A stretch of DNA of 61,835 bases, filler included, from Globobulimina sp. (GCA_003354225.1; 14 parts of 14 records of this genome joined end to end with filler, not necessarily neighbours in it), one strand, 5' to 3'; shown: positions 23,493 through 61,835, numbered from the whole stretch's first letter. A program made the numbers and translations. Notes: generated by a model from the sequence alone, not told the origin.

Positions 23493-24065
23493 TTATTAAT
23501 ATAGTATAAGTAGTATTATATATATCAGATATCTGTTGAATGCAATGGAATGGAGACTGACAGTCACAGTGATTATTGCGCCTTTAATAGTTGCAATTTG
23601 ATTGATAAATATATGGTTATCAGTCACCATTTCATGCATAATATTGATAATTGATAATTGACATAGTTTAATTATTAAATATTTTACTTAATTCTTCAAT
23701 TGAAATTAATTCACGTTAATAGTGAGTTCTATAGATCCGATCACAAGGAACATCCATCTGTTCTGAGAAACGTTTCATGAGAAACTAGTTACGGAATGAG
23801 AAACAATAAAATCGTGATTGTTCTTCATGACTTCATCATTATATTAGATGGCTGAGTACGAGTATATGCAGCAACTCATCGTCTCCTTGCACAACACACT
23901 ACGATTTATCTATCCTTGCACTCTGAGCATATTCAATGCCAACAAAAAGAACCTACACAAAAATAGCTTTTTGATATTATAATTAAAAAAAAACCAAAAC
24001 AATTTAAATTATTACATTTAATTCATTCAACCTGTGGTGACAAATAAAATTAAATAAGACGCTCT

Positions 24066-24932
24066 CTACGCAATAAATGCATTATAGATATATCCAACAC
24101 AGGCCATCAACACAACGCATAAAATCAACACCGGGCACCATCTCGTGGCACCACCAGAGGCTTCCAACAATTTCTTAATTTGTTCATTTCTGGATTCTAA
24201 TTTCTCAGTCACATTATCTATTTTCTCTTCAACTTCCTCCAACATTACTTGCTGTTTATCCAACTCCTCATTTATATCCGTCCCGATCGCATTCAATTGC
24301 ATCACGCCTTGCTTTATAACATCTAATTTGGTGTCCAACACTTGATCCCTTTCAATTGACTCCTGGATAAAGGCTTGTTGTTTGGTAGTAAGTGGCGCCG
24401 TGTCTGACGACATGAGCCCATCCGCCCTCTTTTTTTTTCGTTTCTCCCTCGCTTTCTGTGCTAATTGGAAGCCTCCGCCACCTACATCGCCGCCGCGTGG
24501 ATCGAACTCATTCTGTGTATATTCCAAATCCTGTTTCATTAATTGCATCAATTCTTGTCGGGATTTGACATCATCAGATTTTAATTCAGTTTGTCCGTTA
24601 TCTAAATCACGTTCATTCTCTCGATATGCGCCCTCCATTTTGCGCTGACAACGCTTGGCCTCCTCCATGTTTTTGTTGATTTTGTTTTTCAATTTGATCG
24701 ACTCTGCGTTTGTACCGACCCGTTCTTCGATACCTTTACGTGTCTTAATGTCTTGCTTTAATAGACATAATTTCTCATTTAATTCTAGTTTTGCGAGCTG
24801 GAATTCGTCCAAAGAGCTGGTCTCTGCGGAACGCGCTTTCTTTCCGCCGCAATCGTCTTCAATGATTTCTATTTCTTTTAATAATTGGGTTAGCGTACGG
24901 AGTTGCGTTTTGTCGATCCTATTCTCTGCCAT
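24066..24932 (-). CDS. Qc-SNARE / syntaxin (SYP7-like)
   Basis: SNARE motif DQVLDTKLDVIKQGVMQLNAIGTDINEELDKQQVMLEEVEEKID and C-terminal TM helix. Confidence 0.85.
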   Translation of the reverse strand: MAENRIDKTQLRTLTQLLKEIEIIEDDCGGKKARSAETSSLDEFQLAKLELNEKLCLLKQDIKTRKGIEERVGTNAESIKLKNKINKNMEEAKRCQRKMEGAYRENERDLDNGQTELKSDDVKSRQELMQLMKQDLEYTQNEFDPRGGDVGGGGFQLAQKAREKRKKKRADGLMSSDTAPLTTKQQAFIQESIERDQVLDTKLDVIKQGVMQLNAIGTDINEELDKQQVMLEEVEEKIDNVTEKLESRNEQIKKLLEASGGATRWCPVLILCVVLMACVGYIYNAFIA

Positions 24933-24999
24933 TTGAGATTTGGAGTTCAAACAAGGTTTTTGCAAGTTGTAGAAAGCAGATTTTGCACACTATCAAAAC

Positions 25000-25914
25000 A
25001 TGTCTTCGTTGCGCAGACTGATAAAAATTAAACCTGTGTTTAGGAATGCAATGAGATATAACTCATCATCCAGCCAATTGCAACAAGATATTGTTAAATT
25101 CGACCGTTTTGATGAAACGAGTCCCTCAGTATATGCCATTACAATGAATGATATTAAAACAAGGAATTGTTTATCTTCAAAAATGGTCGATTCCTTGATA
25201 TATTATATTGAAAATGCCGCTGCATTAACATCCGGAGAATGTCGTGTGTTGATTATAAATAGCAATCCAAATGGCACTACTTTTTGTTCTGGGCATAATT
25301 TAAAAGCATTATTCAATGCTATTAATGAGCAAAATGAAGAAGAATGGCAAAAACACTATGTAATGTGTAGTAATTTGTTACTATCGATGCAGTCATGTTC
25401 GTTGCCAATAATATGCTGCGTCCATGGTACCTGTACTGCATCGGCAATAGAAATAGCCAGTGTAGCTGATATGACCTTATGTACCAAAGATACCACATTT
25501 TGCATTCCTGGAATGAATTTGGGTCTCAATGCGTGCAAACCAGCCACAACTTTTAGCAACTCATTGAATCATAATTCATGGAAATTGGGATTGGAAATGT
25601 TATTGACTGGGAGAGAAACGATGGTTGATGCGACAATGGCGTATAACAAAGGATACATCAATTATGTTGCAGAGGATTATAATGATATGAATCGAATGAC
25701 GTTAAAGTATGCGGATAAAATAGCGAGTAAATCCAAGTTATGTGTATCCATCGGAAAGGACACTTTTTATCAACAGTTGAGATATAAAAGAGATATAAAA
25801 AAAGCATATCAATTGGCGTCTAATGTAATGGCTGATAATATGTTAACATATGATGCACGGGAAGGTATTCAAGCATTTTTGAATAAAACCATTCCCAAAT
25901 GGCATGATAAATAA
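25000..25914 (+). CDS. Mitochondrial enoyl-CoA hydratase/crotonase family protein (ECHDC3-like)
   Basis: FCSGHNLK, PIICCVHG, EMLLTG and DAREGIQAFLNK motifs, with a basic N-terminal transit peptide. Confidence 0.88.
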   Translation: MSSLRRLIKIKPVFRNAMRYNSSSSQLQQDIVKFDRFDETSPSVYAITMNDIKTRNCLSSKMVDSLIYYIENAAALTSGECRVLIINSNPNGTTFCSGHNLKALFNAINEQNEEEWQKHYVMCSNLLLSMQSCSLPIICCVHGTCTASAIEIASVADMTLCTKDTTFCIPGMNLGLNACKPATTFSNSLNHNSWKLGLEMLLTGRETMVDATMAYNKGYINYVAEDYNDMNRMTLKYADKIASKSKLCVSIGKDTFYQQLRYKRDIKKAYQLASNVMADNMLTYDAREGIQAFLNKTIPKWHDK

Positions 25915-26563
25915 TTTCCATTCCTGTTATATTAAATGTAATATAAGTTTGCAATTTCCAGAGTTTCAGAGGTGTATATATTATGTCCTACTGATTTTTA
26001 CCTATAAATAAAAATTACTGTAAATGTAACACCAGGATCTCTGTTGCAACTTGCATAAAGATTTGATTTAACACCAATATTGAATCGGAATTAAGAACTA
26101 GCATTAATATTAAAGCCACTGTCGACAGATGTGAAACGACTAACGAGTTAAGTTATAGTTTGTCCTGACTACTGAATTTCTCCTCTTGTATATTTCTAGT
26201 TAAAAGGTCTATTATATATTTATAATACCTATCCTATTACGTATATTCAAAATTTATTATTTATTACTTAAAATTCATTATTTATGTTTAAAAAAAAAAA
26301 CAATTATTGAGTTAAAATTGCAACAATCGATACAACGAAGGCGGCAAATGCCATCTTTTTTGCTTTTGCATGACTTGTGGTGGAATAAGCAATATCCATA
26401 AACATCTGCATAGTATGTGGATATCCATCGCCATCCGTACAATAGAACCAATACTCGACACTTNNNNNNNNNNNNNNNNNNNNNNNNNNNNNNNNNNNNN
26501 NNNNNNNTTAATTAATTAANNNNNNNNNNNNNNNNNNNNNNNNNNNNNNNNNNNNNNNNNNNN

Positions 26564-32148: not shown

Positions 32149-35100
32149 ATGAAATCGTCCTCATCAGGTATTTGTAATCATTCATGAAGATAATTCAATT
32201 ACAACTCAATTAACACAAATCTAAACAGTCGTCCTCCTCTTTATCGTTTTATTACTAGGTTGAAAATAATTTTCGTCTTAGTCATTATGTTGTACATATA
32301 TATTTAAGCGGACCTTATAATATATTTAATATACATTCATTACAGCTAATAAATCGTTGGCGAGAAGAGCTACCCGTTGGAATAAACGATTTGGAGCAAG
32401 ATCAAAATCAAAATCGTCCTCCTCCAAAACTGGTGATATTGCTCGTGGTTCGTGGAGAAAAGGAAGAAATGCAAAAAATGATGAAAAAGGCACAAATATT
32501 GGTTCATTGTCACAATGTAATGACCAATCCAATTGTTTAAATTTTGAAACAAATAAAATTAAAAAATCAAATGAATATGAATATGAAATGTGTGTTTATT
32601 GGGATGACGAAAATCCAAAATGTAATAAAAAAGAAGCAATATCCTCAATTTGTAATGCAAAAAGAATAAAATCACGACGAAATGGTTGGAATGCCGGTAT
32701 TTCGAATAAAATTTGTAAGAAAGTAAGATGTGGACAAGTCGCAAAATTTGGAGTTAAAGATGGTGATGGATGTAAATCGTCATCATCAGTAAGTACATCA
32801 TTCAATAATATTAAAGCAGAATGTGTATATGATGGCGGTTATTGCGCTGAATGTAATGCAGCAGATTGTTCGTGGAAGATACAGGCACCAAAATGTTATC
32901 AATCTCTATCAGAATCACAATCAAAATCAGAATCAGAATCAGAATCAAAATCAGAATCAAAATCAAGTTAAATACCTTGTTCTAAACAAGTCAGATGACA
33001 CTAGGTTTAATTTATGATAATATGCAGAACCAAAGGCGACACCAAGACCAACCAAATGGAGAAAAACATCTGACTCAAGCTCTGAATCTGGAAACAAAAC
33101 CCGTAGAAAAAAAAGATGGAAACGAAAACAAGAAGAGACATCCTCAGATTCCGCGAAATCAAGCACAAGTTCAAGTTCATCATCTTCACCAAATGGAAGC
33201 AGCAAATCGCCTACAAAAACACCAACAAATTGGAAAACAAATAAACCAACAATAAGACCTAGTTAATACTAATAAATTCTTGTTAAAAAATTACCTCTCA
33301 ACAACACAAATATATAACAGGTACAACACATATCGGAGAGATTTGTCGTTATTCATTTTTCAAAGATAAGAAATTTGATTTTTTGATCTTATTTGATAAT
33401 TCATGCGGTTTATCATTCAATGATTGCAATAATTTGCTTACAGGAATTGGTAAAATTATATCAAACATAAAAGGTAATGATCCAACACAATCAAGAGTTG
33501 CTGTGATGCAATTTACTGCACACACACCACAGACATTAATCCCCTTTGATTCTTCATTACAAAATAATGTTTCACAACTTATAGATTATATTTCGCAAAA
33601 TGGTGAATGTAAACATGGTGGGCACGATAAAACAAATTTGGTTGAAGCTTTAAATGATGGACAGGAACTATTTGATGTTGCTGATGATCGAATTGATAAA
33701 ATTATTATAGTTTCAGCTTGTAAAGATTGGCGAAGTAAAACAATTTGTGATGAGATTGCACCAAATTTATTTGATAAAAGGATTGATGCATCGATTGTTA
33801 ATTTAGCAGATACATCAGATGCAGACAATGTTATTATAAAACAAGAGTCGCATACATATTTACAATGTGTTGCTGATAATGATTCGCATCGAGTGTGTAC
33901 CGGATGCGACTTTGACGATATAATAGAAAATTGTTTACTGCCTCAAATATGTTCACCAACAAAATGGCAAACACCACAACCAACGGAATGGCCAACAAGA
34001 GAACCAACTAAATTTCCGATAAAAGAACAATCTCCAAATCCTACAAATAAGCCAACAGCTCAACCTACACCAAGTCCAACAAAATGGCCAACTAATAAAC
34101 CAACATCATATCCCACACAATGGCCAACTAATAAGCCAACAAAATGGCCAACATACACACCTACATATATTCCAACATCAAAGCCAACAAAAAAACCAAC
34201 ATCTGAACCTACTAAATTCCCAACTCATGATCCAACACCTCAACCTACACCAAATCCAACTAAAAATCCAACAAATCGGCCAACTCAATCCCCTACAAAG
34301 CGACCAAGTTATTTCTATTGACAAAAATTTCAAATAAATAATAATAATATATGACAGCACCATCGCCAATTGAAGATATCTGTCCATATGAAGTTAGAAA
34401 AGGATTTGAATTCGATTTTATTGTATTATTTGATAATTCGTGCGGATTAACAGATGATGATTGTGATGACTTATTAGAAGGTGTTGGTGAGATTATATCA
34501 AAAATATCTGATGATAGCAATAATACGCGGGTTCAAACCATGCAAATTAATCAAAAGGGTGCTCCAGACATTGTTGTTCATTTTAATAATATAAATTTAC
34601 AAAATGATCCTTTGAAATACGTACAATTTGTAAGAGAAAATGGTGAATGTACAGATGGGGGACAAGGTCAAACAGATTTAGTTGCAGCATTGAAGGATGC
34701 GGCACTTTATTTTGATTTGAATGATGATCGAATCGATAAAATGATCATTATAAATGCATGTAAAGATAAGAGGAACAAAATATGTGATGAGATAGCTCCG
34801 AATTTATCAAACAAAGGCATTGACTCATATGTTGTTAATTTGCTTGCTGCATCGGATTCAAATAACACAATCACAAAACAAGAATCAAACACATATTTAA
34901 TTTGCATGGCGGATAATAATATAAATAGAGTATGTTCAGGCAAGGATGGAGAGGGTGTCTCAGTGGATGAATTTACAGATATTATTCAACACTGTTTATT
35001 ACCGGAAATATGTCAACCACCAACACCATCACCAACAGATTATCCAACCCCAGAACCAACACCGCAACCTACACCATGGCCAACCAGATGGCCAACTAAT

Positions 35101-35311
35101 AAACCAACAGAATGGCCAACCTATACACCTTCTAATAATCCAACGATACAACCAACAGAATTGCCAACAGAATGGCCAACAGATTATCCAACATTAGATC
35201 CCACATACAATCCAACTATAGAACCTTCACCATCACCAACAGCATTCCCAACCGAAGACCCAACATATGCCCCCACACCCAACCCAACCGAGAATCCAAC
35301 CGAATGGCCCA
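32149..35311 (+). CDS. Secreted multi-exon protein with two VWA-like domains and PT(xx)P repeats; cut by contig end
   Basis: Spliced signal peptide MKSSSSVVLLFIVLLLANKSLA (introns about 32168-32228 and 32259-32345). Duplicated DFxxLFDNSCG MIDAS-like domains near 33380 and 34410. PTxWPT repeats. Internal exon boundaries are approximate. Confidence 0.65.
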
Positions 35312-35584: not shown

Positions 35585-35721
35585 TAAAACATTGTAACTT
35601 AAATTAAAAAAATTCGCCTTGCTCCACGGTTTTTTTTTGCTGATAACATCCTTGCACTCGAATACACTGAAAAAGTAATCTGATTATATCTGATATGACA
35701 ATAAATAAACATTGACGAGAT

Positions 35722-37907: not shown

Positions 37908-38105
37908 ACGATGACTAGCTCACTTCAAGAAAATCTTAATATCAAGGTTCTCACCGCACCTCATAGACGACAAAATTTTACCTTTATTGCATAGATTTGT
38001 CTCTTCTTTCATATGCTAGGATCCTGGAAAAATCTATCCTTGCACTGTCGTCTATGAGGTGAGAACGCTGATATTAAGGTTTTCTTGAAGTGAGCTAGTC
38101 ATCGT
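37908..38105. repeat. Long imperfect inverted repeat (arms 37908-37972 and 38046-38105, 73-nt loop)
   Basis: ACGATGACTAGCTCACTTCAAGAAAA... pairs with ...TTTTCTTGAAGTGAGCTAGTCATCGT. Confidence 0.9.
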
Positions 38106-38402
38106 ATTACTACTTTCGAAACGATGCAACTTTGTAAGTGTGGTTTTTTTCGATGATTCCCATGATTCCATTAAAAACAATAATTCCGATGATTCCCTTA
38201 AAAACGATAATTTTTTTCAACTTTTTTCCGTCTTTTTTTTTAAGGGAATCATGGAAATTATTGTTTTTAACGGAATCATGGGAATTTTTTTTTCACGGAA
38301 ATCCAAAAAATCGAAAAAAAGTACTGTTTTTATGAAATTAAAAGTTTTGAGGAATCAAAAAAGCCACACTTACAAAGTTGCATCCTTTCGAAAGTAGTAA
38401 TA
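38105..38402. mobile_element. MITE-like element with ~45-bp terminal inverted repeats and a possible TA target site
   Basis: TATTACTACTTTCGAAACGATGCAACTTTGTAAGTGTGG ... CCACACTTACAAAGTTGCATCCTTTCGAAAGTAGTAATA, with internal GATTCC/GGAATC subrepeats. Confidence 0.75.
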
Positions 38403-38427
38403 GCTGGGTATATAGTAAACGTACAAA

Positions 38428-39836: not shown

Positions 39837-41510
39837 TTGATTTATATATTGGATATTTGCAAATATTGTTATATAATGTATTTAATATGGGGTCCAGGGT
39901 TCAAATTGGCCAAAACAGATTTGGCGACTGCTTTTAGGCAGTTATATTTGGCAATAACTGAACCGGAAAATTGTGTATATAAATTTGATAATAAATTAAT
40001 TGCAGATTTTTATGATTTTTGGGGAACCAGATCTGGTTCAAAACATACCCAAGATGTCGGGCAATTAATTTGTAGATATTTTAATATAAAATTAAATGGA
40101 TTAGAATTGTTGGAAGATATAAATGAATGTATTGAAAAAAGGAATGTTTTATTCTTTAATTATAAGTTTAATAAAGGAAGAAATAAAGAAATAAATAAAG
40201 AAATAAAGGAAGAGAGTTTAAATTTTATTTATGACAATAAAGTTTTATTTAAATGGAATAGTATTTGTGTAAAAAGATGGTTGGTTGAAAATAAAATGAA
40301 TAAATTATTACCTTTTGTGAATAGTCTATTATTTGATGGAATACATTTATTATCATTTAATATACATAGAGCAGGAGATATATTATCAAATAATGAATTG
40401 TGTTTATTTAAGGAAGCAAATTTCTTTATTTTATTAATAAAATTAAAAATTGAATGTAAACAATTATTAAAAGGAATAGTTAATAATTATGTTGATGATT
40501 ATATGCTATTTCTCCCTCCATCTCAAGTTGTGGCAGATAAGATATTCAATGATTTCTGCGATTTTATCAAAAAAGCAGGTTTTATTGAAAAGGAGAAAAA
40601 GAGGGAGGGTCCAGGAGATTTTTTAGATTTAATTGGTTATGATATAGATACGAATGAAATGTTGGTACAATTGAAGGAGATAAAAATAAGAAAAGTTGAA
40701 GAGTTAATAAATGAGTTATTAATACATCAGGTGGTTGACTTAGAGACATATGAATCAATTATTGGCAAATTACAGGACTTTTCGTGCCTAAAATGGCCGG
40801 GAAAGGCCTTTTTGAAAAGATTGAGAGATAAATTGTATAAATATATTGAGTTATATGGGAGAAAGAATGTACTCATTATATTGGAGAGATGGGAGTTATT
40901 AGATTTTTTATGGTGGAAGAAATATATAAGAATAATAAACAAAGCATCCATTTTCGACATATGTGACCCGTTATATCCTGAAGATGAGATACATTTTGAT
41001 GCAGCGACCAATGGCTGTCGTGAGTTAGGTTGGTGTCCGGCAGTCTGTTGTTGGTATAAAGGTAATTGGTTTGCAATTCCATTACCAATGGAATATACAA
41101 ATATGTATAGATCGTTGAGAACTGAGTATGTTAAGGAATTCGCGATCGCACATTTCGAAATGTTGGCAATCATCATAGGATTGTATACATTCAGACATTT
41201 AATCAAATCGCATACAAAAATATTGTTAAAAACTGACAATAAGCACGTTGAAGCGGTTATAATTAATAAGAATTCAGACGACGAATTCTTACAAGATGGA
41301 GTTCGTTGGTTATGTATGTTTGCTGTGGAGCAGTCAGTAAATTTGTACATTGATTTTATTAATTCAAAAGCAAATAAAATCCCTGATTTAGCGTCGAGAT
41401 TCGACATAAAAACATTATTAAAAGTGGCAAGGAAGAAATGTAGGAGAAATGGATGGGAATTGACCGATTTCTCAAAAAATTGTGATATTCCTAACATACA
41501 TGAATGGTGA
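39837..41510 (+). CDS. DIRS reverse transcriptase-RNase H with a SAM-like insertion between RT motifs B' and C
   Basis: KTDLATAFRQL, FWGTRSGS, NYVDDY, KKREGP and LIGYDIDT (RT). HFDAA, HFEMLAI, KTDN and NKIPDLASR (DIRS RNase H). Confidence 0.88.
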   Translation: MIYILDICKYCYIMYLIWGPGFKLAKTDLATAFRQLYLAITEPENCVYKFDNKLIADFYDFWGTRSGSKHTQDVGQLICRYFNIKLNGLELLEDINECIEKRNVLFFNYKFNKGRNKEINKEIKEESLNFIYDNKVLFKWNSICVKRWLVENKMNKLLPFVNSLLFDGIHLLSFNIHRAGDILSNNELCLFKEANFFILLIKLKIECKQLLKGIVNNYVDDYMLFLPPSQVVADKIFNDFCDFIKKAGFIEKEKKREGPGDFLDLIGYDIDTNEMLVQLKEIKIRKVEELINELLIHQVVDLETYESIIGKLQDFSCLKWPGKAFLKRLRDKLYKYIELYGRKNVLIILERWELLDFLWWKKYIRIINKASIFDICDPLYPEDEIHFDAATNGCRELGWCPAVCCWYKGNWFAIPLPMEYTNMYRSLRTEYVKEFAIAHFEMLAIIIGLYTFRHLIKSHTKILLKTDNKHVEAVIINKNSDDEFLQDGVRWLCMFAVEQSVNLYIDFINSKANKIPDLASRFDIKTLLKVARKKCRRNGWELTDFSKNCDIPNIHEW

Positions 41511-42658
41511 CATAGTTTTATCGCGTTTTGAGTTGTCATTTGTGGCAATATTTGCAATTACCATTCAATATTGCATTAATATCCATTTATTTACAATAAA
41601 TATATCAATTCGTAATATGTTATTTTATTTTTGTTGTTTTGTTAATACATTAATATGTTAATAATAGATATGGTTATAATAAATGAATTGTATTAATATA
41701 TATATTGATTTTTAGCATTGGTTTGTTTGTAAATGGTGGACTTTGAGTTTTTAATCGACGTTGTTTGTGATAGCAAAGAACGGATTGACTTAATTAATGA
41801 ATAAAATCTGTGTAAATGTGATAGTATATTATGAATGAATGAGTTTTTAAATAATTGCATTTTGTGTATAAATAATTTGTTTACTTTTTGAAAAATTCAC
41901 ATCGTTTTGTCGATATTGGCATTGCTTGTTTTTTGATAAATATTGTTCAAAATGAATATGTGATATCAGATTTGATGAGTAATGGGAGAAAATGCTGGGA
42001 TTTACGAATAAATTAAGTCATTGAACGTATTGTTCATTTTCATACAAAGACGTTCGTCCTTTGTCATTCGTGTGAAATATGCATCAGATTATGTCGAATT
42101 ATCTGACATTTGGGGTTGATGTTAGTTTCGCAGGCGATTATTATATGGAATACCATGAGAATGTATAGCTGTTGTTGATATATGTAATATTGACACATTA
42201 TCTTTGTTTTGATGGTTTAATTACAGAGATAGTTGTTTACCACATGGGATACCATGGAAACGTTTATCTGTCATTTACAATTAATATATGCATGTTTGAT
42301 GAATAAAAATGTGTTTATTAATGAATTTCAAATACAATATGATTAGTCAGATAATATGGAGATATTTCCTGTTATGATTATAACAGAGTGACTATGTATG
42401 ACTAAGAGATGACTATAAGTGATATTGCAACCATTATAGATATAGGTAATATTGCTGTGACGTACGGTGTCATGGAGTTACATTTTTATAAGGGGCAGGT
42501 TTCACTTTTGAGTTTAAAGTACAAAATAAAAAAACTTTGTGTTTGGTTTGTTAGGTTTGCAAAGTTTGTATTTGTATAAATAATATACAGTAAGAGGCAA
42601 ACATTTTAATCACCCGGTTTGGTCAAAAGTAAGTCCGATTTATAAAGAATTGTTATAT

Positions 42659-43933
42659 ATGGCATTAAATGGTGGGGTGAAAGTAACATCGGAGTCGACG
42701 TATATGACGAATTTCCTATTTTATTGGAAGACAATGAGAAAGTTAGGATTATCAGATGAAGAGGTCTGGACTTTTCCAACTCCGGATGCATATTTGCAGC
42801 TATATACCATACATTGTTGTATGGTGCAAGAAAAGGTAAACTGTTGGAAGACGATGAGATTGAAATATCGATCGATTGACTTTGTGGCACAATTATGCGG
42901 AGAATTTCAGTCATGGTCAGATAATCCATCATTATTTGCATTAACAAAATATGTTAAAAAGACCAATCCGGGAAAAGGTTCTGATACTTTACCCGTGACA
43001 ATAGATATTTTGTTGCAGATAGTAAAATTTATTCTGATGTGTAAAGTTTATAATGGTTTGATATTGACGGATTATGAAAAGAAATTAAAAACTGATTGGT
43101 TAACGTTCGCGAAAATATGGAATGACACCAAGAGATTATTTTGGTACATGTTCGCGATGTCCCTTTTATTTGTAGGAATTTTAGGTTTAAGGGGGGCAGA
43201 GTGCTATGAGAATAATAAAAAAGAATATGAGGGTTACGGTATTTATTTATCGGACTTAGACTTTTTTTGGAGAAATAATGGAAGGAATTCCATATATAAA
43301 AGCAATGGTTATTCTCTTGCATTTGATAAATTACATCATCTTCGAATAAGATTAAGAAATTCCAAGGGACAGCAAAAAGGGAAGGATGTGATGTTAAGAA
43401 TTGGCAGAACCAATAATAAGATTGAGCCGGTTTTAATATTTTATCATATTTATCAAATACAGAAAAGAAATTTAAAAAAGATACATAAGAAAAGTTTAAG
43501 AAATTATTACTTTTTCCAACCAATTAAAAGAAGCTTTAAATTAACAACGATTAAAAAATATTGGAAGGAGATTATTAATGAAATGGGTTTTTGGGAGCCA
43601 AAAAGGTATCGATTTCATGGTTTAAGAAAAGGTTTTGCGACGACGCTACAACAGAAAGATGTGCCAATGAGTTTAATTGCATATGCAGGAAGATGGAAAT
43701 TAACTGCAGCAATATATAGATATTTGATACATTCACAAAGAGATTTGTTGTGTTTGGTGAATATTTTGGTTTATGGAAAGAATAAAAAGTTATTTGCCTT
43801 AGATATGGATGCAGCAGAATGCAATTTGGTGAGGGAATATCCGAATAATAAAGATAAATTTTCCATGGATTTTATTAATAAATATCAAGAAAGCTTATGT
43901 GAATATGATATTGATTTGAGTGGGGATAATTAA
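42659..43933 (+). CDS. Tyrosine recombinase of the DIRS element
   Basis: Catalytic residues in GLRGAE (R), NSKG (K), FHGLRKG (HxxR), AGRWK (W) and IYRY (Y). Confidence 0.9.
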   Translation: MALNGGVKVTSESTYMTNFLFYWKTMRKLGLSDEEVWTFPTPDAYLQLYTIHCCMVQEKVNCWKTMRLKYRSIDFVAQLCGEFQSWSDNPSLFALTKYVKKTNPGKGSDTLPVTIDILLQIVKFILMCKVYNGLILTDYEKKLKTDWLTFAKIWNDTKRLFWYMFAMSLLFVGILGLRGAECYENNKKEYEGYGIYLSDLDFFWRNNGRNSIYKSNGYSLAFDKLHHLRIRLRNSKGQQKGKDVMLRIGRTNNKIEPVLIFYHIYQIQKRNLKKIHKKSLRNYYFFQPIKRSFKLTTIKKYWKEIINEMGFWEPKRYRFHGLRKGFATTLQQKDVPMSLIAYAGRWKLTAAIYRYLIHSQRDLLCLVNILVYGKNKKLFALDMDAAECNLVREYPNNKDKFSMDFINKYQESLCEYDIDLSGDN

Positions 43934-44256: not shown

Positions 44257-44948
44257 ATAAGGAAAGCTCCGTCATAAATATATTATATATCCATAACCAT
44301 CGACAAAAAATTCTACACATATCAGCCATACATAATGTTAAGAAGATACACAACAAATTAAATGCACAATATATGAATGAACTGACTAATGCAATTTTGG
44401 CGTAGGCGGTGTACGACTTTGAAAATAGATAAAATGATGTTAATGATATATGTGCATCACTGTGACAGCCGGCCTTTTTATTCAAATTCCAATTCCATGA
44501 TTTATACTTATTGTCATCGTAGCTGTTCCAGGTCGCGTTACGAACGGGACAGTTATTATCATTTCTAGGCCCATCGTAATTAAATGAGTCCGAAGCTGTA
44601 TATTTTAACATTGAAAGTGTGGCAAATATATACATGAAGCAGTTATTTAATTGTTTGGAACCTGAAGCATTGAATATGTCATTGCATGTCCGACAGTCTG
44701 TGCACTGCGGCATACAATATGATAAATCAAATCTTGTGTCTGATACGTTATAAAATGATGCATTTTGCAAAATAAAATAACAGTCACAGCAGTCTGGATT
44801 GTACCTCTTAATTTCGTTAGCATTCTTATCATTTGCTTTGAAAACAAGAAAGCCAATAATTAAAAATCGAATAATATTCCAAATTGTCCATATTATAAAC
44901 CACAGAACTCCTTGCGGATTGTGGCACTCTTCTTTGAGTTCAGACATG
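44257..44948 (-). CDS. Multi-pass membrane protein with Cys-rich loop, N-terminal part; the same family continues in 47945-48577
   Basis: Ends in ...CRIFCRWLWIYNIFMTELSL, the peptide that begins the 47945-48577 ORF. Confidence 0.7.
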
Positions 44949-46095: not shown

Positions 46096-47784
46096 TCAAT
46101 ATTCCTGCATTATCTTTTCAAAATATTGATCAAATTCAACCGCGTGATTATGATATGGATTTTCTTTCGGATTAAACAATTTGCAGTTTGTAATAATTAA
46201 TTTAAAATCACTCACAAACTGCGTTATCGATTTATATTCATATTTATTCAATTTCTTCTGGATCTGACTCAAATCCATTGGTCTTTTGATCACATTGTAA
46301 TAATTACCAGCTTGCACAGCATCGACCGGCTTATTAAATACGCCCACTTTGCTGTGGTTATGTAATTGTTTCAATATCCCAGATATCCTCGCCGTGACTT
46401 CAACAATTTCGCCGGGCTGACTCGTCGCAAACAGCTTCGTTTTAGTTTTGGTTTTCTGAGCTGGCACCCCTGGGATATCAATAATATTTATATTGTTGAC
46501 ATAGCGAAACTCGTTCAAACCTTTCCTTTTCACCACAGAATTGCTGATATCGCCAATTTTATTCACCAGCTCGCGTCTGTTGGCAATCAGATGTTCATTC
46601 AACTTGCAATAATTGACATGTTTTATAATGCGCGAATGCATTAACTTTGCTCCGTTGTATATCTTTATATATTTTTGTTGAATGATCTCATCAAAGTCAA
46701 TATTTTTACTGCCATATAACCGGTCAATTTTGTCATCAATTTTGCACCGTTTTGCCACCAAACATTTATCCTCAGATTGGTCCAAAGGGATTCGTTCAAA
46801 GCCTTGCTTTGCAAAGTAATCAATGGCATTGTTATCGGCAAAGGTGACAATGTGATAAATCCCCATTCTTTTCAGCGTCTCTTTCAAGTGATTCATTAAA
46901 CGCGTTCCAAAGCCTTTGATCTGATCCGAAGGCGAAATGGCCAAAAAAACAACTTCGGCAAAGTTGCGTTCAGGAAAGGGACGAAAACAAACACCGCCAA
47001 AAACTTGCTTGTCCATCAAAGCTGTCATAGAACGGTGCTTTTTGTCAAATAATATCCGAGTTATGTATGGAGTGGGCATTTGAGGCAAACATTCGTGGAA
47101 TATCTCCTTTAAATCAATCAGTTTTATCCATGCTGCTTCAGAGCTGTCATTGTAAATCAATTTGAATTTCAATGAGTGGCTTTCTTCCAATTTGCGAGGA
47201 GCATCGTCTCTGTTTTTGTTATGTATTGTTGTTTGTGTGCAGTGCAAGGATATTTTGCATATTTGCCAGTACCTCAAATAATGCTTTCTTGTATATGGCC
47301 CAAAGTCAGATTCAGTCAATTTTGGCCGTTTGCTGTTAGTGTGTCCAGATTGTGGTAACTTTCGTTTTTTGTTTGTTTGCTTTTGTTTGGATGCATTTTG
47401 TTTGGATTTGAGTGGATTTATTTTTCTATTAATTTGGGTTTGCAATAATTGAAAAAATCGATGGATTAATGGATGGCATTCATGGTTGAAATCGAAATGA
47501 GTGATTATGCCGCGTTCCACAGATGTTATTATTTTGGAGAATTCAGTGATGGACATGGTCAATGAACGTGGTAAGGATTGGATTTCTTGCAATTGGCTGT
47601 TGTTTTTGTTTTTATTTATTTTGTAGTTGGAGTCAATTGTTTGTAAGGTTTGGTGGTATATTCGAGCATGAAAATTGATTAAATGAAAGTTTTTGTTTGT
47701 ATTGGATGCGGCACATAATCTCTTTTCATGTTTACGAATAAATTCGGCTAAAAATAGTGATATAGTTGGTACGCTACAAGACAT
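46096..47784 (-). CDS. GCN5: Histone acetyltransferase GCN5/PCAF (GNAT plus bromodomain); probable in-frame intron 47210-47272
   Basis: LPQMPTPYITRILFD, GGVCFRPF, FAEVVFLAI, QIKGFGTRLMNHLK and TFADNNAIDYFAKQGF. Bromodomain YYNVIKRPMDL...NCKLFN. Confidence 0.93.
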   Translation of the reverse strand: MSCSVPTISLFLAEFIRKHEKRLCAASNTNKNFHLINFHARIYHQTLQTIDSNYKINKNKNNSQLQEIQSLPRSLTMSITEFSKIITSVERGIITHFDFNHECHPLIHRFFQLLQTQINRKINPLKSKQNASKQKQTNKKRKLPQSGHTNSKRPKLTESDFGPYTRKHYLRYWQICKISLHCTQTTIHNKNRDDAPRKLEESHSLKFKLIYNDSSEAAWIKLIDLKEIFHECLPQMPTPYITRILFDKKHRSMTALMDKQVFGGVCFRPFPERNFAEVVFLAISPSDQIKGFGTRLMNHLKETLKRMGIYHIVTFADNNAIDYFAKQGFERIPLDQSEDKCLVAKRCKIDDKIDRLYGSKNIDFDEIIQQKYIKIYNGAKLMHSRIIKHVNYCKLNEHLIANRRELVNKIGDISNSVVKRKGLNEFRYVNNINIIDIPGVPAQKTKTKTKLFATSQPGEIVEVTARISGILKQLHNHSKVGVFNKPVDAVQAGNYYNVIKRPMDLSQIQKKLNKYEYKSITQFVSDFKLIITNCKLFNPKENPYHNHAVEFDQYFEKIMQEY

Positions 47785-47944: not shown

Positions 47945-48577
47945 TTATTTGCGACAAAGTTTCCGTATACTATTTGCAATTACTTTTACTAAAAACCACG
48001 GATTATCAAACAACGCAAATGCTAACAATGCGGATACGGTCCAAATTCTTTCTTTCTTCCATTTTGTTCGATGACCCGCTTCGATCATATCCACACAAGA
48101 TATCACGACTAAAACTAAAAAAAATATCATTACAATAAATGCAGTGAAACCAATACAGGCCCACAAAAATGTGAATTTCTTTGAATTTATATTTTCTGGG
48201 AGAGCATTATAATTATCATGTGCTTCTTGTATATTTTGAGTGTGTTGCATTGACATCGCCTCTGACCATGAAGACACTGACACATTTGCACCGCGATGAT
48301 GTCGCTTATAACTTTTTATACATTTAAGCAAATAATATATTCCCCATCCAATCACCCATAAAAAATGAAATGTTACGAATGCAACAGATATTGCAATAGC
48401 ACCGGATAACATATTTTCCATTAAGTCACTAATCGAATCAACTTCGCATGTTATTTTTCTGTTATTTGCGCCAACAAAAAAGTACTTATGATAATATTGA
48501 AATGGTTTAAAAAATAAATATAAGGAAAGCTCCGTCATAAATATATTATATATCCATAACCATCGACAAAACATTCT
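47945..48577 (-). CDS. Multi-pass membrane protein, C-terminal part
   Basis: Open from the contig end with TM helices. Shares 58 nt with 44257-44314. Confidence 0.7.
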   Translation of the reverse strand, partial: RMFCRWLWIYNIFMTELSLYLFFKPFQYYHKYFFVGANNRKITCEVDSISDLMENMLSGAIAISVAFVTFHFLWVIGWGIYYLLKCIKSYKRHHRGANVSVSSWSEAMSMQHTQNIQEAHDNYNALPENINSKKFTFLWACIGFTAFIVMIFFLVLVVISCVDMIEAGHRTKWKKERIWTVSALLAFALFDNPWFLVKVIANSIRKLCRK

Positions 48578-51627: not shown

Positions 51628-52997
51628 ATGTCGTCGAAAGATTCGGACGCCGTTCAAAAACGCGCGAGATTCCGATTTAAAGCAGAGATATATGATACAT
51701 ATAAAGACAATAACAATATTTCATTTTATGTGATTAATGTAAAGATTTATGGTTTAAATGTGGATGAATATGAAATAAAGAAACGTTTTAGTCAATTTGC
51801 AAATTTTGATGCTCGATTAAGAGCGCGATTTCACCATAAACGGCTACCACAATTACCTTCTAAAACGTTTACAAACTCTTCCAAACACGCCGACGAATTT
51901 ATATCCAAACGGAAAATCTCATTAAACCGCTATTTACGCGGTGTTGGACAAAGATTATATTTACAAAATTGCGAAGCTATCTGGCATTTTTTTGAATTCA
52001 TAAATAAAATCAATCCATATTTGCATCGATATCGTGTATTACATTTAAAATCCATCCAATGTAATGATTATCAATTCATTGATGAAAAAGACGTCCCATC
52101 AAAAGAAGCGGAAACAAAAAGGTACAGCAATCCTTACCTTGTCATCCTTGCACATTCTCTGTGTTATCATCCTTGCACAATATACAAAGCTCCTCCTTCT
52201 CGTTTCGGAACTTATTCGCCAGCGCATCGGCCACTAAATCCACCAATAAATTATCATTCGCCACGTCCAAATCCAACAAGAAAGTGTTGCGCGAATGGAA
52301 GGTGCTCTATGGCGCCTTCATCGCGTCCAACATATACTTGTCAGTCTCCACCATCCACTCCGACAACACCAAAAATAACTGGTGGGACACTTTCATGTCC
52401 ACCGCAAACGACCTCCAATCCCAAATATTGTCCAATAACCCCATCACTACCAATGACGAGCTCGACAATGACATGGATGACTATGACGACGACCAAATCG
52501 AGCAGCCACCGCAAAGCATAAACCCCGAAGCAAAAACAAAGGACATTGACGACGAGGACGAGCCGTATAATCGGCAGGATCGGTTGGAATCTGTTGATTT
52601 TGACACCCAATCCGATTTAAATGCAAATGTGAACCCCAATCCGTCGGCAAACACCGCCAAAAAGGGGTTATCCGCGTGGGAGGCCGAGAAATTAGCCTTT
52701 GCCGAGAACGAATTTTATTTGGGCAAAATCGAGATCTACAAATGGGAGGATGCCAGCAACCACAACGACAGCGATGAGATTATGTATACATCGTATTGCA
52801 GATTCCCCTTAGTCCGCAACCGTCCGTCGTGCGCCATCTTCATCAACGAAGATGACTTGTTATTGGTGGGCACCTCGCATGGCAAGGTCTTGTGCTTCAA
52901 ATTGAATCGGAACACGTACACAATCTCACACATCTGTTATCTGCCGCGGGTGTTTGGCAGCTATGTGACGGACATGATCGCCGTGGAATGCTCGTTG
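51628..52997 (+). CDS. PX-domain protein with a probable C-terminal beta-propeller; intron 52122-52189; cut by contig end
   Basis: IKKRFSQFANFDARL...LPQLPSK...FISKRKISLNRYL. The 68-nt intron joins the frames (AAA AG|C TCC). Confidence 0.82.
52144..52178 (+). promoter_or_regulatory. Recurrent non-coding motif ATCCTTGCAC (two copies here; also 23912, 35648, 38036, 47242 on minus, 61085, 61741)
   Basis: Eight exact copies, none in a predicted exon. Function unknown. Confidence 0.6.
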
Positions 52998-53257: not shown

Positions 53258-55459
53258 ATGCAAAAAGCCCTGAAAGTTTTTCTAGTTTCTAGTTTCTGCA
53301 ATATATCAAACGTCTGTAGCACTGCACTCATGCAACAACAAAATGACAAAATACAACAGAAAACATGTACACTGTTGTATTTAATTACAATCCAATTATG
53401 CGCATCTCAAACGAGTGTCCCGTTCACTGGTTTCACCGCTGGTTCACCATTGATGCCAGATCCCAGGGCATTGCTACTTAGTGGTTATCAAGCATCAGAA
53501 AATAGAATCTGGCTTATCGGCGGGGGATCCGCCGGTAACGAATTCAAAAAATGGCATTATGATATCGACACCAATATATTCACAGATCTCGGCAATATAT
53601 CCATAATTGCGGGCGTTTTAGACTCTCAATGTTCCTTCCAATGGGCTGAGAATCTTATAACATTTGCAAATGGAGGACTATTACGAGATTTTTCAATGGT
53701 TACTGGACAATTATCTCCATGGACTGGGACATTGCCATATTATCGAGAAGCGCCATGCGTTGCTAGTAATTTGTTTCATCGCTTTATATTTGTAACCGGC
53801 GGGATTCTCATCGACGGGCAAAGTCAATCAGAAAGTTCACGTATTCAAATCTACGATGTCACTACGGATGACTGGATCATATTAGATCCGCCGGGCTCGC
53901 CATATATGGTCACTCCCCGCGGAAAGCATGCTTGTGTGTTATACAATGCGTTTCTATATGTTTTCGGCGGGGTGAACGTCGGTGCGGTCGTAGCTTCTAA
54001 CGAGAAACTAGATGTTTCAGACCCCACTGATAACAATTTTGGCAATAAAGATTGGGACAACACAATATCTTATCTTGCTGATAACAATTTGTATTTTCAG
54101 CGTGCAGTAGTTGACAATACGAATAATTTAATTTATTTAGTTGGCGGCAGGGACGACAGTTACGGTGGCGGATATTCTATAAATATTCAGATTTACGATC
54201 CAGTCATGGATACAATCACATTACTTTCAGCACCAACGCAACGGCTAAATGTAGGCAGATCCTCGCCAGCGGTCATTTTAGTCAATCATAGATTGTATGT
54301 GTTTGGTGGAGCTGGGCCGACAGATACGTGGGAATATTCCAATAGTTTGACGTTTGCACCGACTGCAGCACCCACCCCAGCTCCCACCATGTATCCCACA
54401 ATGAGTCCTACATTGAGTCCAACCGCCTCTCCTACGTCGGATCCTTCATCGAGTCCAACATTGGACCCAACCAATGATCCAACAACAGATCCAACAGCCG
54501 ACCCGACTGAAGATCCTACATTGGACCCAACCAACGATCCAAGCTTTATGCCAACGAATGACCCAACGTTTTCGCCCACATTTGACCCAACATTCATACC
54601 AACATTGATGCCAACTTCTGATCCAACAGCTGATCCAACAAAAGACCCAACCTTTGATCCAACGTTTGACCCAACAAATGACCCCACAACAGATCCAACG
54701 TTTGAGCCAACCGTCGAGCCAACGTGGAATCCAACATCTGAGCCAACAACGCCTACATTTCGACCAAGTGCAGCTCCAACCACTGCACCAACGTGGATGC
54801 CGTCATTCGCTCCGTCAAAAGCTCCAACACCGCACCCGATCATTGAGATAATACCGACAGTCAAACCATTGGCAAATCCATCCGTGCCATCAATATCGAG
54901 CACAGAACGAATGGCAACAGCTGAAAGCAATGGAAATGCACAGAATCCGCAGATTAACCTCAATACTTTGGACAGGTTGCCACTTAAAACGTATATACTG
55001 ATCGGATCTATTATAGTTTGCTTGATCGGCTGTTGTTGTTTATTGATATTGCTGCTTAAGACGAAAAGTAGGAAAGGAAGGAAGAGGAAATATCTAGCTT
55101 CTTATAAAAAAAAAGTGAATAAATCTGTACATGTGACTGTCACAGAAATGATCAAAAAGAAATCGGAACCCATTCGAATCACAATGGAGACATGCACACC
55201 GATGAAGCATGTGGCCAGTACGTCATCCATGGATTGCATTATGGAGAACAAAACTACAATGGGAGCGGACATGGGAATGCGAATAGTTCCTGTCGATGAT
55301 GAAGGAACCACGGAGGAGGAGGACGACTCAGATGACGATGATATGTATGGGAAAGGAACCGATGGGAATACTAATAGGGGTACGGGAGCAGGGACCGCTG
55401 GAGAACCCTTTGATGGAAATGTACATACATCGGATGTGGTCACCATCGGAAGAATATGA
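53258..55459 (+). CDS. Kelch-repeat ectodomain, PT-repeat stalk and TM helix (type I membrane protein)
   Basis: Repeated WLIGG, FVTGG, YVFGG and YLVGG kelch motifs, PTxDPT repeats and TM ILIGSIIVCLIGCCCLLILLL. Confidence 0.85.
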   Translation: MQKALKVFLVSSFCNISNVCSTALMQQQNDKIQQKTCTLLYLITIQLCASQTSVPFTGFTAGSPLMPDPRALLLSGYQASENRIWLIGGGSAGNEFKKWHYDIDTNIFTDLGNISIIAGVLDSQCSFQWAENLITFANGGLLRDFSMVTGQLSPWTGTLPYYREAPCVASNLFHRFIFVTGGILIDGQSQSESSRIQIYDVTTDDWIILDPPGSPYMVTPRGKHACVLYNAFLYVFGGVNVGAVVASNEKLDVSDPTDNNFGNKDWDNTISYLADNNLYFQRAVVDNTNNLIYLVGGRDDSYGGGYSINIQIYDPVMDTITLLSAPTQRLNVGRSSPAVILVNHRLYVFGGAGPTDTWEYSNSLTFAPTAAPTPAPTMYPTMSPTLSPTASPTSDPSSSPTLDPTNDPTTDPTADPTEDPTLDPTNDPSFMPTNDPTFSPTFDPTFIPTLMPTSDPTADPTKDPTFDPTFDPTNDPTTDPTFEPTVEPTWNPTSEPTTPTFRPSAAPTTAPTWMPSFAPSKAPTPHPIIEIIPTVKPLANPSVPSISSTERMATAESNGNAQNPQINLNTLDRLPLKTYILIGSIIVCLIGCCCLLILLLKTKSRKGRKRKYLASYKKKVNKSVHVTVTEMIKKKSEPIRITMETCTPMKHVASTSSMDCIMENKTTMGADMGMRIVPVDDEGTTEEEDDSDDDDMYGKGTDGNTNRGTGAGTAGEPFDGNVHTSDVVTIGRI

Positions 55460-58040: not shown

Positions 58041-58229
58041 GCTCAAAAAAATATTTTTTAGGCGAAAAAACTTGCACTACATTTTATTCATCATTTATAT
58101 AAGCCAAAAGCAATTAAGTTATATTTCATCCAATCATATAAATAAATATTAAAGTACAGCCAATCTAATACAGCCAGCAATTTCTTGTCAGAAATTATCA
58201 GAAATTCATTGGACAATAAAACTTGCAAT

Positions 58230-58652: not shown

Positions 58653-59087
58653 CTTATAAGCATTGATATATAAATTTATAAGGTTGACATTTCAGTGTGA
58701 ATTTAATCAATTTATAACGTTCCATTGAAACTTTATGTATTTTAATGAAATGAGCAATCTGTTTAGGTGAAAACCAGAGGATTAAAAAGTCCGAACGTAC
58801 AGTGAGTTGCTGTTATTTTGACAGATAGCATAAGCTTCTTCAAAAACACTAAGACATTGAAGAGGAACTTAATATTATGACTCACAAAAATATGGAAAAA
58901 CCTCCTTCAGTTTGCAAAAGAAACAAAAAGATTTAATTTAATACCGATACCAAGTGGACCTAATGAATTTATCTCCGATCATTTCGGATTAAGGGAACTA
59001 TATACTTTTGTATTAGTTTCAAATATTTTTATTTACCTTTGTTCATTGGCTTCACCTCCAAATAAAAGGGATGTATTATATTTTTAT

Positions 59088-59666: not shown

Positions 59667-59720
59667 CGTTTTAAAATTAAATTGTTTTTTGTTGAAAACG
59701 ATCAAAAACACTGCACGACA

Positions 59721-60458
59721 ATGACCGAGAGCGATAGAGTTTGGTATATGTCCTTATCACATACTATGCAAAAATAACAATTTTGCAGGAGAAAGTTTGT
59801 ATTTTGGGGGCAGGAACAGTTGGAAAAAGTGCCATCACCATTCGAATGGTTGTGAATGAATTTAAACATGGCTATGAACCAACCATCGAAGATAGTTATA
59901 CGTAAGTGACTGTACACTTGTATTGTGCTGTATTTATATATACCATTTGATAAAACCATGCAAAAATGTCTAAAAACGACATATAGCACCAACATAACAG
60001 TGGATGATAAACGTACCACGTTAGAGATAGTGGACACAGCGGGTCAAGAGAGCTTTGAACAATTACAAAGAATATGGATTCATGAATCAAACGCATTTTT
60101 ATTAGTATATGCTGTAAATTCAATGGTTACATTCAAGGCAGCACAGAATTATTATAAAACCATTTGTCGGATTAAAAACGAAGAGAGAATACGATGGGAC
60201 ATGGTATTAGTTGGCAATAAATCAGATTTATTGCAACACAAAGTGTCTTGGGATATGGGTAAATCGCAAGCTGATTCGTGGGGTGTTCCGTTTATTGAAA
60301 CCAGTGCCAAAACTGGAGGCAATGTACAAGATGCTTTTAAAACAATTGTTGCTGAGGTAAGGAAAGAGAAAGCAGAGTTTGTAGAGGATAAAAAAAATAA
60401 GGACGAATTTGGTGATGATAATGTTCAACAATGTGCTTGTAGCTGTAATATTTTGTAA
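59721..60458 (+). CDS. Ras-family small GTPase; introns 59739-59788 and 59902-59986
   Basis: Spliced product has GAGTVGKS, YEPTIEDSY, DTAGQE, GNKSD, ETSAK and the CAAX box CNIL. Confidence 0.92.
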
Positions 60459-60735
60459 CAAGCAATTAATAATTATATTGTTAGTGTGTACCAATTGCAT
60501 TTTGTGTTTGTGAGTGTACGTATCTATTATTGTGCGCGTATTCCGCCAAATTATATTCAATTATTAGCTCTTTCCTTTCCTTTGTATTGTTAATTAATTT
60601 CTTCTCCACTTTGCAGAACATAAAAACGAAAAACATTGAAGTGCAGAAACCTAATCGTCTGTTGCCATCCAGTCATTCACGCTCCTTTAGTTCTATTTTG
60701 TTTTCTTTCTGTACAAAGAAGCGCACTCCATCCAT

Positions 60736-61042
60736 ATGGGTATCTATATGCTTTATCCTATCAATAATATAATTAATTTTAAATTTTATAATGTAAACAC
60801 AATTAAATAAAAAAAAAGCCTTTATTATTAATGCGATTTATTGGTTCATATGTTTTATTTTATGCATTATGTTTATATATCCATTGGCATGCTTTTTATA
60901 TTTGATTTGCAGCATATTAACTGTTTGCATTTCTGCGTGTAAAGGATTAACAGATATTTTTAAAAAATGGTTGGAATCGCCTTCAAAATGTTTGGAAAAT
61001 TGTTGCAATGGAAGTGCAATTGGATGCGGTTGCTTATTTTAA
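60736..61042 (+). CDS. Small Cys-rich membrane protein, copy 1 (missing from the ORF track); intron 60740-60818
   Basis: ATG G|CC TTT... gives MAFIINAIYWFICFILCIMFIYPLACFLYLICS...GCGCLF, a paralog of copy 2. Confidence 0.75.
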
Positions 61043-61295
61043 CTTCATTTTATGTCTGTAACTCTGTAATGTGTGGTGGAGCTTATCCTTGCACTTTATG
61101 TAAATAATAGTAGAATAATTTATATTCTTTTGATAGTCTCATATCTATGCCAAAAAACTCTGTCTGCGCATCATTTTTGATAAATTAAATAGTCTCCTTT
61201 TTTTATAGCATTAATACTTTTATCCTCTAGAACCTTATAATTATTGTCATCTAGTTTTTGTTCCCTTTCTGCACAAAGACGTTCCATCAATCACT

Positions 61296-61597
61296 ATGGC
61301 TTCAGGTATCTATGTTAAATATTATAGTTAAATGCTAATAAACAGTAAACACAAACAAAAAAAACAGGAGTAATGTGTCTTGTTAATGCCATTTATTGGT
61401 TAATATGTCTTATTTTATGCATCATGTCCGCTTCCCCATTGGCATGCTTTTTATATTTAATTTGCAGTATTATAGCTGTTTGTATTTCTGGTTGTAAATC
61501 AATTGCAGATATTTTTAAAAAATGGTTAGATGCTCCAGCTGAATGTTGTAAAAATATGTGTAAAGGAAATGCCATTGGATGTGGCTGCCTATTTTAA
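61296..61597 (+). CDS. Small Cys-rich membrane protein, copy 2; intron 61306-61367
   Basis: MASG|VMCLVNAIYWLICLILCIMSASPLACFLYLICS...GCGCLF. Confidence 0.78.
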
Positions 61598-61835
61598 TAT
61601 ACTTTAATTTAAAACAAATTTATATGTTACAACGTTGCCTATCAATTAATGACTTACTTTTTGTATAATATGGGATTATGGATATCATGGATTTCAATTG
61701 TAAGCATTTTTATTGTATTTTGTTAATTTATTCATTTGATATCCTTGCACGTAAGCAAGTTTTTTTAGTTTTGATATAAGATTAACAGCTCTAGGGATGA
61801 CTAGATCTCTTTAAAAAAGTTTTGGAATTGTTTTT

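Follow-up and report, generated by a model that had tools for sequence, protein, structure and literature searches.

The window analyzed here is a 61,835-nucleotide stretch of DNA from Globobulimina sp. (GCA_003354225.1), and its subject is a ten-base word, ATCCTTGCAC, dispersed through the non-coding sequence. The window is composed of 14 contigs of 4319-4328 bases each, arranged in order of length with N44-TTAATTAATTAA-N44 spacers between them, and contains 60,535 real (non-filler) bases. The guanine-plus-cytosine (GC) content of the contigs ranges from approximately 26 to 41%. By protein comparison, the gene content is eukaryotic. The GCN5 open reading frame (ORF) shares 68% identity with a Nonionella stella protein and 47% with an Ammonia sp. 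protein, and the best named relative of the PX-WD40 gene is from Nonionella. Because these two proteins are closest to those of Nonionella and Ammonia, the source organism is a foraminiferan, as judged by protein similarity. Foraminifera are a major group of marine protists whose genomes are hard to assemble and annotate. To our knowledge, almost nothing is known about how foraminiferal gene boundaries are marked or how RNA processing is controlled.

A dispersed word in non-coding DNA

The window contains eight exact copies of ATCCTTGCAC on five of the 14 contigs, which are unrelated (Table 1). An earlier sequence-only reading had listed these eight copies along with a variant, CTCCTTGCAC, and all were found exactly where it had placed them. 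The mean count in shuffled sequence is 0.08, in agreement with its rough estimate of fewer than 0.1 copies. The highest count in any shuffle was 1, and 0 of 100 shuffles reached eight. In an unbiased count of all 10-mers in the window, ATCCTTGCAC is the sole word with eight copies that is not AT-rich. When up to one mismatch is allowed, there are 12 matches where 3.19 are expected, but the one-mismatch copies themselves are not enriched in the window (4 against approximately 3.1 expected). One of these four is the variant CTCCTTGCAC at 23883, and the other three are within long ORFs. The 8-mer core, CCTTGCAC, occurs nine times in the window, every time within the motif or its variant, and sub-words of the motif are scarcely found outside it.

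Though long ORFs make up 57-67% of the real bases, none of the eight copies is exonic, as the earlier reading had stated, and the same is true of all seven clusters that they form. That reading had also found no copy in two retroelement contigs. This stands for contig 10, the one retroelement contig confirmed, which has no copy. The motif is a non-random, strand-aware and sharply defined signal confined to the non-coding DNA of the window. Its density is approximately one copy per 8 kb.

Outside the ten bases, conservation drops sharply. A pyrimidine precedes the motif in nine of nine window copies, variant included. When 36 copies from the window and the further loci described below are pooled, position -1 is a pyrimidine in 32 and position +1 is an A or T (W) in 33. 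A weak CAA(T) tail (WCAAT) follows on the 3' side. The flanks are otherwise unalignable, and all ten motif bases are identical in 37 copies. Among these 37 copies, -1 is the sole position within 70 nt of the motif at which conservation reaches 0.45 bits. C/G skew in the flanking sequence does not discriminate between the strands, and a repeat search found no longer repeat family that includes the window copies.

Among the literature matches listed, there was no description of the motif; full-text matches to the word, its complement and its RNA spellings were of the primer type only. Topic searches on foraminifera likewise gave nothing on such a motif among the matches listed. The available text of the study of the Globobulimina sample (PMC6783311) uses the word "motif" 0 times, and its supplementary files could carry details of gene structure.

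Table 1. Copies of the motif in the window and the features that contain them.
Feature	Coordinates	Strand	Context
Variant CTCCTTGCAC	23883..23892	+	29 nt 5' of the exact copy at 23912, between convergent genes; 391 nt past AhpC/TSA-like stop
Exact copy	23912..23921	+	420 nt past stop of AhpC/TSA-like ORF (+); 145 nt from stop of SNARE-like ORF (-)
Exact copy	35648..35657	+	64 nt past TGA of Arg/Ser-rich ORF (+); 65 nt from stop of convergent ORF (-)
Foldback (inverted-repeat) element	37908..38105	.	Loop carries the copy at 38036; 51-nt arms, 92% complementary
Exact copy	38036..38045	+	Between divergent genes, in the loop of a long inverted repeat, at the loop's 3' edge; 383 nt 5' of ATG of + ORF
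GCN5 intron	47210..47272	-	63-nt GT..AG, starts GTACTG, ends ACAG, in frame, stop-free
Exact copy	47242..47251	-	Sense strand, GCN5 intron bases 22-31; 33 nt from acceptor
PX-WD40 gene intron	52122..52189	+	68-nt GT..AG, starts GTACAG; ATCCTTAC look-alike at 52130
Exact copy	52144..52153	+	Sense strand, PX-WD40 intron bases 23-32
Exact copy	52169..52178	+	Sense strand, ends 11 nt before PX-WD40 3' splice site
Small gene 1 3' untranslated region, extent reached by transcript contigs	61043..61157	+	X8 record 28, X7 record 23
Exact copy	61085..61094	+	3' untranslated region of small Cys-rich gene 1; 43 nt past TAA, ~200 nt before ATG of tandem paralogue
Exact copy	61741..61750	+	144 nt past TAA of small Cys-rich gene 2

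Copies in introns and in transcripts

Three sense-strand copies had been assigned to introns of the GCN5 and PX genes, and they do fall within the short GT..AG segments of Table 1. The GCN5 intron corresponds to a 21-residue gap in comparison with P0001 (Nonionella) and P0003 (Ammonia). In the PX-WD40 gene, the alignment to P0160 (Nonionella) changes frame between 52083 and 52185, and the phase fits the 68-nt intron. An alternative PX intron of 29 nt, which would leave the first copy exonic, is unlikely because the verified introns here are 50-85 nt (47210-47272, 52122-52189, 59902-59986, 60740-60818 and 61306-61367). The motif is found in two of six verified introns. Both begin with GTAC, 22-23 nt separate the 5' site from the start of the first exact copy, and the first AG on the 3' side of the motif is the splice acceptor. 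The four introns without a copy start with GTAAGT, GTTTGG and GTATCT (twice). The 3' ends of the verified introns are mostly A- or C-rich and not a pyrimidine tract.

The motif could be a branch-site-like signal of a divergent U12-like intron class that is served by a lineage-specific small nuclear RNA (snRNA). TCCTT is common to both U12 signals and the motif, in the last PX copy the A lies 12 nt from the 3' splice site, and the use of the first AG as acceptor in both introns fits this idea, as does the restriction of the motif to the two GTAC introns among the six. Its sharpness also fits RNA pairing. A known relative in form is the tandem U12-5'-site-like enhancer of genes for minor-spliceosome proteins, which is bound by the U11 small nuclear ribonucleoprotein (snRNP). 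Like the motif, the U12 signals and this enhancer combine ATCCTT or TCCTT with positions in introns and in a 3' untranslated region (3'UTR), tandem pairs, and a sharpness that suggests snRNA pairing.

We nevertheless consider a branch-site role very unlikely. The U12 5' site, [AG]TATCCTT, is located at the start of the intron, whereas the motif lies well inside introns that start with GTACTG or GTACAG, which are not U12-type sites. The upstream RT is absent in seven of nine copies, and only two of nine are preceded by AT. The U12 branch site is TCCTTRAC, whereas the motif reads TCCTTGCAC, with one extra base, and is 12 nt (PX) or 33 nt (GCN5) from the acceptor. The strict TCCTTRAC has one match in the window, at 41130 (-), in the retroelement contig and away from all copies of the motif. 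Matches to RTATCCTT at 14613, 25650 and 35816 look coding by eye and do not resemble U12 introns. Moreover, five of the seven window clusters are outside introns, four verified introns do without the motif, the copy at 61085 is retained in spliced contigs, and one copy per 8 kb is far too frequent for U12 introns. No snRNA was found in Rfam scans of the window and the ten further loci. The U12-type splicing signal raised in the sequence-only reading fits poorly with the intron starts, the extra base, the non-intronic clusters and the two copies kept in spliced messenger RNA (mRNA). A general spliceosomal branch site was also considered and rejected, because the motif is in only two of six verified introns and the spliced contig retains the copy at 61085.

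The transcript comparison covered contig 14, where the copies at 61085 and 61741 are located. The four public runs compared have no RNA label on record, and their RNA origin was taken from splice joints. All four show GT..AG joints at 59901/59987, 60738/60818 and 61302/61365 and therefore contain spliced RNA-derived sequence. X8 record 28 (60609-60738 joined to 60818-61157) is spliced and runs through the copy at 61085. X2 record 7, from another study's run, spans the same copy (61070-61288) with 0 differences. The copy at 61741 is spanned by X7 record 24 (61438-61774) and by X2 record 8, which covers 61668-61828 and then continues 760 nt past the end of the window contig. No splice joint in the contig-14 transcript contigs uses either copy. 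The motif is kept in processed RNA at 61085 and 61741.

An X8 contig ends, and an X7 contig jumps, at 61157, within a genomic A6 run 63 nt past the motif. At best, this position faintly hints at a poly(A) site; an RNA end cannot be proven from contigs. Steps in coverage depth around the motifs were set aside, since they sum over paralogues and several organisms.

The two genes that carry these copies (60736-61042 and 61296-61597) are tandem paralogues that encode small cysteine-rich, membrane-like proteins. They are 78% identical over 229 nt, mostly coding sequence. Their 3'UTRs are unalignable, yet each has one exact copy of the motif (43 and 144 nt past the stop). Both genes have an intron directly after the first codons that begins with GTATCT and ends in a long A-run. 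The transcript contigs also include a third, recombinant-looking member of the family, with a joint at 60931/61517 and 30 other letters. Upstream, transcript contigs of a Ras-like gene extend to 60577, and those of the following gene begin at 60609. The spacer has no motif, and the neighboring transcription units may be only approximately 30 nt apart.

The transcript contigs also bear on a role in chromosome breakage or amplification; breakage and replication/amplification had been proposed for the motif, and a replication origin was weighed with them. In Tetrahymena, the chromosome breakage sequence (Cbs) tags sites at which the DNA is cut and which do not persist in the expressed genome. The motif shares with it a dispersed, near-invariant word of 10-15 nt in non-coding DNA. 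Two copies are less than 240 nt from contig ends, and contig 11, with the GCN5 gene, has near-identical 58-nt ends. However, two of seven clusters near contig ends is the chance level, and the contigs of the four runs read through both contig-14 copies, in one case far beyond the contig end. Unlike the Cbs, the motif is transcribed and is located inside the introns and mRNAs of ordinary genes. We regard a signal of this type as highly improbable; the findings contradict breakage and amplification and have no bearing on origins.

A library, primer or assembly artifact would be conceivable in an assembly of short contigs, and adapter remnants are present as loose ends in the runs. The motif, however, is internal to collinear genes and fits an intron defined by homology. 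X2 records 7 and 8, from the other study, carry it with 0 differences, several other metagenome assemblies contain it, and the adapters seen differ from it in sequence. The chance of an artifact is negligible in our view, and this settles the check for primer or adapter origin that the earlier reading had advised.

Intergenic copies and further loci

The remaining copies are intergenic. The four copies said to follow plus-strand stop codons (those at 23912, 35648, 61085 and 61741) do so, at 420, 64, 43 and 144 nt. A GTACGT upstream of the copy at 35648 was considered as a 5' splice site and rejected; it is within the coding frame of the Arg/Ser-rich ORF.

The copy at 38036 is in a hairpin loop, as had been noted. 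The arms of this foldback (approximately 37908-37973 and 38047-38105) give a folding energy of -103.2 kcal/mol (z -15). Flanking inverted repeats were found at this copy only and not at the other window copies. Adjoining the hairpin is a second, nested foldback (38106-38403) with 49-nt arms that are 94% complementary, as well as outer arms. It looks like a MITE-type (miniature inverted-repeat transposable) element, and part of it (38147-38302) has weak Rfam matches to plant microRNA-precursor families.

Metagenome contigs were scanned for two copies 5-35 nt apart, which returned at least 116 loci. Most of these are tandem repeats or chance pairs in the DNA of unrelated organisms and were set aside. 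Ten loci (L083, L063, L039, L104, L035, L097, L101, L055, L080 and L068; 29,274 bases in total) were chosen by eye from 25 of the at least 116, on the basis of low GC content and unrelated flanks. These loci are AT-rich and eukaryote-like. They contain 29 exact copies where 0.027 are expected, of which 20 are given by the design of the search and nine are extra, against three one-mismatch copies. L083 encodes an Arp4-like protein with Bolivina and Nonionella as best named relatives and is the sole locus whose taxon was checked by protein search. The ten loci may come from the species of the window or from others. In PMC6783311, the accession prefix that L039 and L104 share is given to the unassigned contigs of a Globobulimina sample.

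The settings of the motif in these loci echo those seen in the window. L083 has a sense pair 72 and 117 nt past the Arp4 stop codon, and L039 has a sense pair between tandem cathepsin and G-alpha genes, 140 and 93 nt from the genes. At L083:6394, the variant CTCCTTGCAC is in sense orientation in the 103-nt spacer of tandem CLC and SOD genes, 61 nt past the stop codon of one and 34 nt before the ATG of the other. L097 has three copies in a spacer between divergent genes, on the 5' side of an OTU gene. In L104, six copies are on both strands of one 900-nt spacer, 5' of an ORF and directed outward from the center, often after a T-run. One copy, L083:1178, is antisense and apparently within a coding exon. 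Many pairs have a few extra flanking bases in common (18 nt in L055, 15 nt in L083 and a longer stretch in L097). The general claim of the sequence-only reading, an undescribed cis-acting signal in non-coding DNA, is upheld in that the motif is non-random and strand-aware and recurs in foraminifer-like contigs.

Two of these loci have repeat structure of their own. Positions 1-900 of L104 consist of repeat units of approximately 120-150 nt, each with the motif after a T-run, and include one outward-facing inverted pair whose arms are 20 nt long (633-652 and 706-725). L080 has a micro-array (1569-1614) of four head-to-tail 12-nt units, each the motif plus two bases and one with a C-to-T change, beside a gene with PT-repeat-like sequence.

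The motif could also be a non-functional by-product, either the remnant of a short mobile element that has since decayed or templated filler at repair sites in dispensable DNA that was later locally duplicated. The pairs with shared flanking bases look like local duplications, the L104 copies belong to a longer repeat unit, one window copy is in a foldback element, and confinement to non-coding DNA is expected of tolerated insertions. Against this, the edge of identity is sharp, with ten of ten bases kept in 37 copies between random flanks, and there is no surplus of decayed one-mismatch copies, though neutral remnants would be expected to erode together with the sequence around them. A sense bias is also unexpected for a by-product, and the window copies are in no longer repeat family. 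We consider this origin improbable.

The main rival is a DNA-level site for an abundant sequence-specific protein. Such a protein could be a general regulatory or insulator-type factor, or could act at the core promoter or as a terminator roadblock at gene boundaries; alternatively, the site could serve as a promoter for numerous tiny non-coding RNA units, as the upstream motif of nematode piRNAs does. Many copies are in very short spacers (L083:6394, L039 and the copy at 35648), and copies between divergent genes (38036 and L097), the outward copies of L104 on both strands and the antisense exonic copy of L083 are readily placed in this scheme. The density of the motif fits an architectural factor, and the weak WCAAT tail may be added. 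The yeast Reb1 sites and the PAC element, which can serve as promoter organizers and roadblock terminators, are likewise exact words of approximately 7-10 bp in short spacers at the 5' and 3' ends of genes.

Unlike these, the motif is also located in tiny introns of only 63-68 nt and in mature mRNA, and it has a sense bias in six of six cases. Where genes converge, a copy has no gene downstream of it that it could promote. As a rule, protein sites allow mismatches, yet one-mismatch copies of the motif are at the chance level. As for a small-RNA promoter, the upstream core motif of nematode 21U-RNAs (piRNAs) has thousands of dispersed copies and, like the motif, is a short exact word limited to introns and intergenic DNA with unrelated flanks. 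In contrast to that motif, there is no conserved base at a fixed downstream distance here, up to 70 nt, and there is a bias to the sense strand of the host. In form, then, the motif recalls the U12 signals and the nematode piRNA upstream motif. A DNA-binding-protein site is possible, and we rate it somewhat below the RNA-level element described next.

A possible RNA-level element

We tentatively favor a reading in which the motif is a sense-strand, RNA-level cis-element in the non-coding parts of transcripts that is read by a highly specific factor; this is a leading possibility and not an established role. Its action at the RNA level and its function are both inferred. Transcript contigs carry two copies, which places the motif in RNA, and it is biased to the transcribed strand. 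Its orientation is sense in six of six judgeable non-coding clusters across the window and the further loci: the GCN5 intron, the PX intron, the 3'UTR of small gene 1, the 3' region of small gene 2, the L039 pair and the L083:6394 variant. If the 10-11 bases are recognized all or none, as the pattern implies, either base pairing or a modular reader is suggested. Because an all-or-none word of this length is surrounded by random flanks, a decaying repeat and an ordinary degenerate protein site are disfavored. Since the motif is found in introns, 3'UTRs and 5' spacers together, a sense-strand RNA element is the simplest account.

As proposed, YATCCTTGCAC(W) would be a functional cis-element of foraminiferal nuclear genes that exerts its effect from the sense strand of non-coding sequence that is transcribed, namely short 3'UTRs, intergenic spacers, 5' leaders and short introns. 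It would be read by a single trans-acting factor of high sequence specificity, which could be an RNA-binding protein of modular build or a small RNA complementary to the motif. Its likeliest roles would be to control how 3' ends form or transcription terminates in spacers as short as 100-250 nt, or to control mRNA fate. A role in 3' processing is possible. The intronic copies may tune the splicing of introns with weak GTAC 5' sites. Roughly one gene in five carries the motif.

Elements of this type are well known from other eukaryotes. The Rbfox word (U)GCAUG and the STAR/Quaking word ACUAAY are bound by RNA-binding proteins in introns and 3'UTRs, and one factor can affect splicing from introns and mRNA fate from UTRs. 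In behavior, the motif appears nearest to words of this kind. Like them, it is a short, near-invariant sense word in introns and 3'UTRs, often in pairs tens of nucleotides apart. Unlike them, this candidate element has 10-11 fixed bases instead of 5-7 and is lineage-specific.

Several points weigh against an RNA-level element. The sample is small, and six of six in sense orientation gives only p ~0.02. The antisense copy at L083:1178 is apparently within a coding exon, and the two-stranded, outward copies of L104 resemble a promoter region as much as an RNA element. The copies in divergent spacers (38036 and L097) are only assumed to be transcribed. The skew in base composition of the flanks is of no help in fixing the strand. 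No trans factor or complementary RNA was found, though no search aimed at a complementary RNA was made. Rfam gave nothing at or near the motif in the window and no matches in the ten further loci. The further loci were, moreover, hand-picked for low GC content and unrelated flanks, with L083 alone assigned to a taxon by protein search.

A more specific version of the RNA-level element, which we judge to be a long shot, has an abundant, lineage-specific guide RNA as the reader. This RNA would be snRNA-like or small nucleolar RNA-like, with a 10-11-nt antisense element that pairs with YAUCCUUGCAC in the non-coding parts of about one-fifth of pre-mRNAs. If true, this would be a new form of snRNP-to-message recognition in which the splicing of weak GTAC introns is linked to the formation of 3' ends, set in a genome with intergenic spacers of only 100-250 nt. 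The complement of the motif may resemble the 3' end of the small-subunit ribosomal RNA.

An invariant word of 10-11 bases offers a practical way in: its copies can be tallied across a genome, its reader can be captured with it, and mutated versions can be placed in reporters. Were it an RNA-guided or gene-boundary signal, it would improve gene prediction in foraminiferal genomes. Even as an ordinary transcription-factor site, it would still be the first candidate regulatory word for foraminifera.

Other features of the window

Contig 10 (39837-43933) has two long ORFs, one with a weak match to an RNase H-like reverse transcriptase and one with a match to a tyrosine recombinase of the phage-integrase family. 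This make-up is that of a DIRS-like retroelement, to which the contig is provisionally assigned. Its GC skew is strong (0.33-0.37). Contig 11 starts and ends with 58 bases (44257-44314 and 48520-48577) that are direct repeats with 98% identity. They suggest a tandem duplication of approximately 4.26 kb, an assembly-graph path that is circular, or a dispersed repeat present at each end.

Another word, ATTTGCAAA, has 17 sites in the window where 5.3 are expected, with a maximum of 12 in 100 shuffles, and occurs mostly as the palindrome ATTTGCAAAT. Its sites include 4130, 21088, 28200, 39855, 51795 and 53662, and several are within ORFs. It may be a second candidate motif. Finally, long in-frame repeats with a 12-nt period, which encode proline- and threonine-rich (PT-repeat) stretches, are found at 33200-35300 and 54400-54750 in two unrelated genes, one of which also has Kelch repeats.

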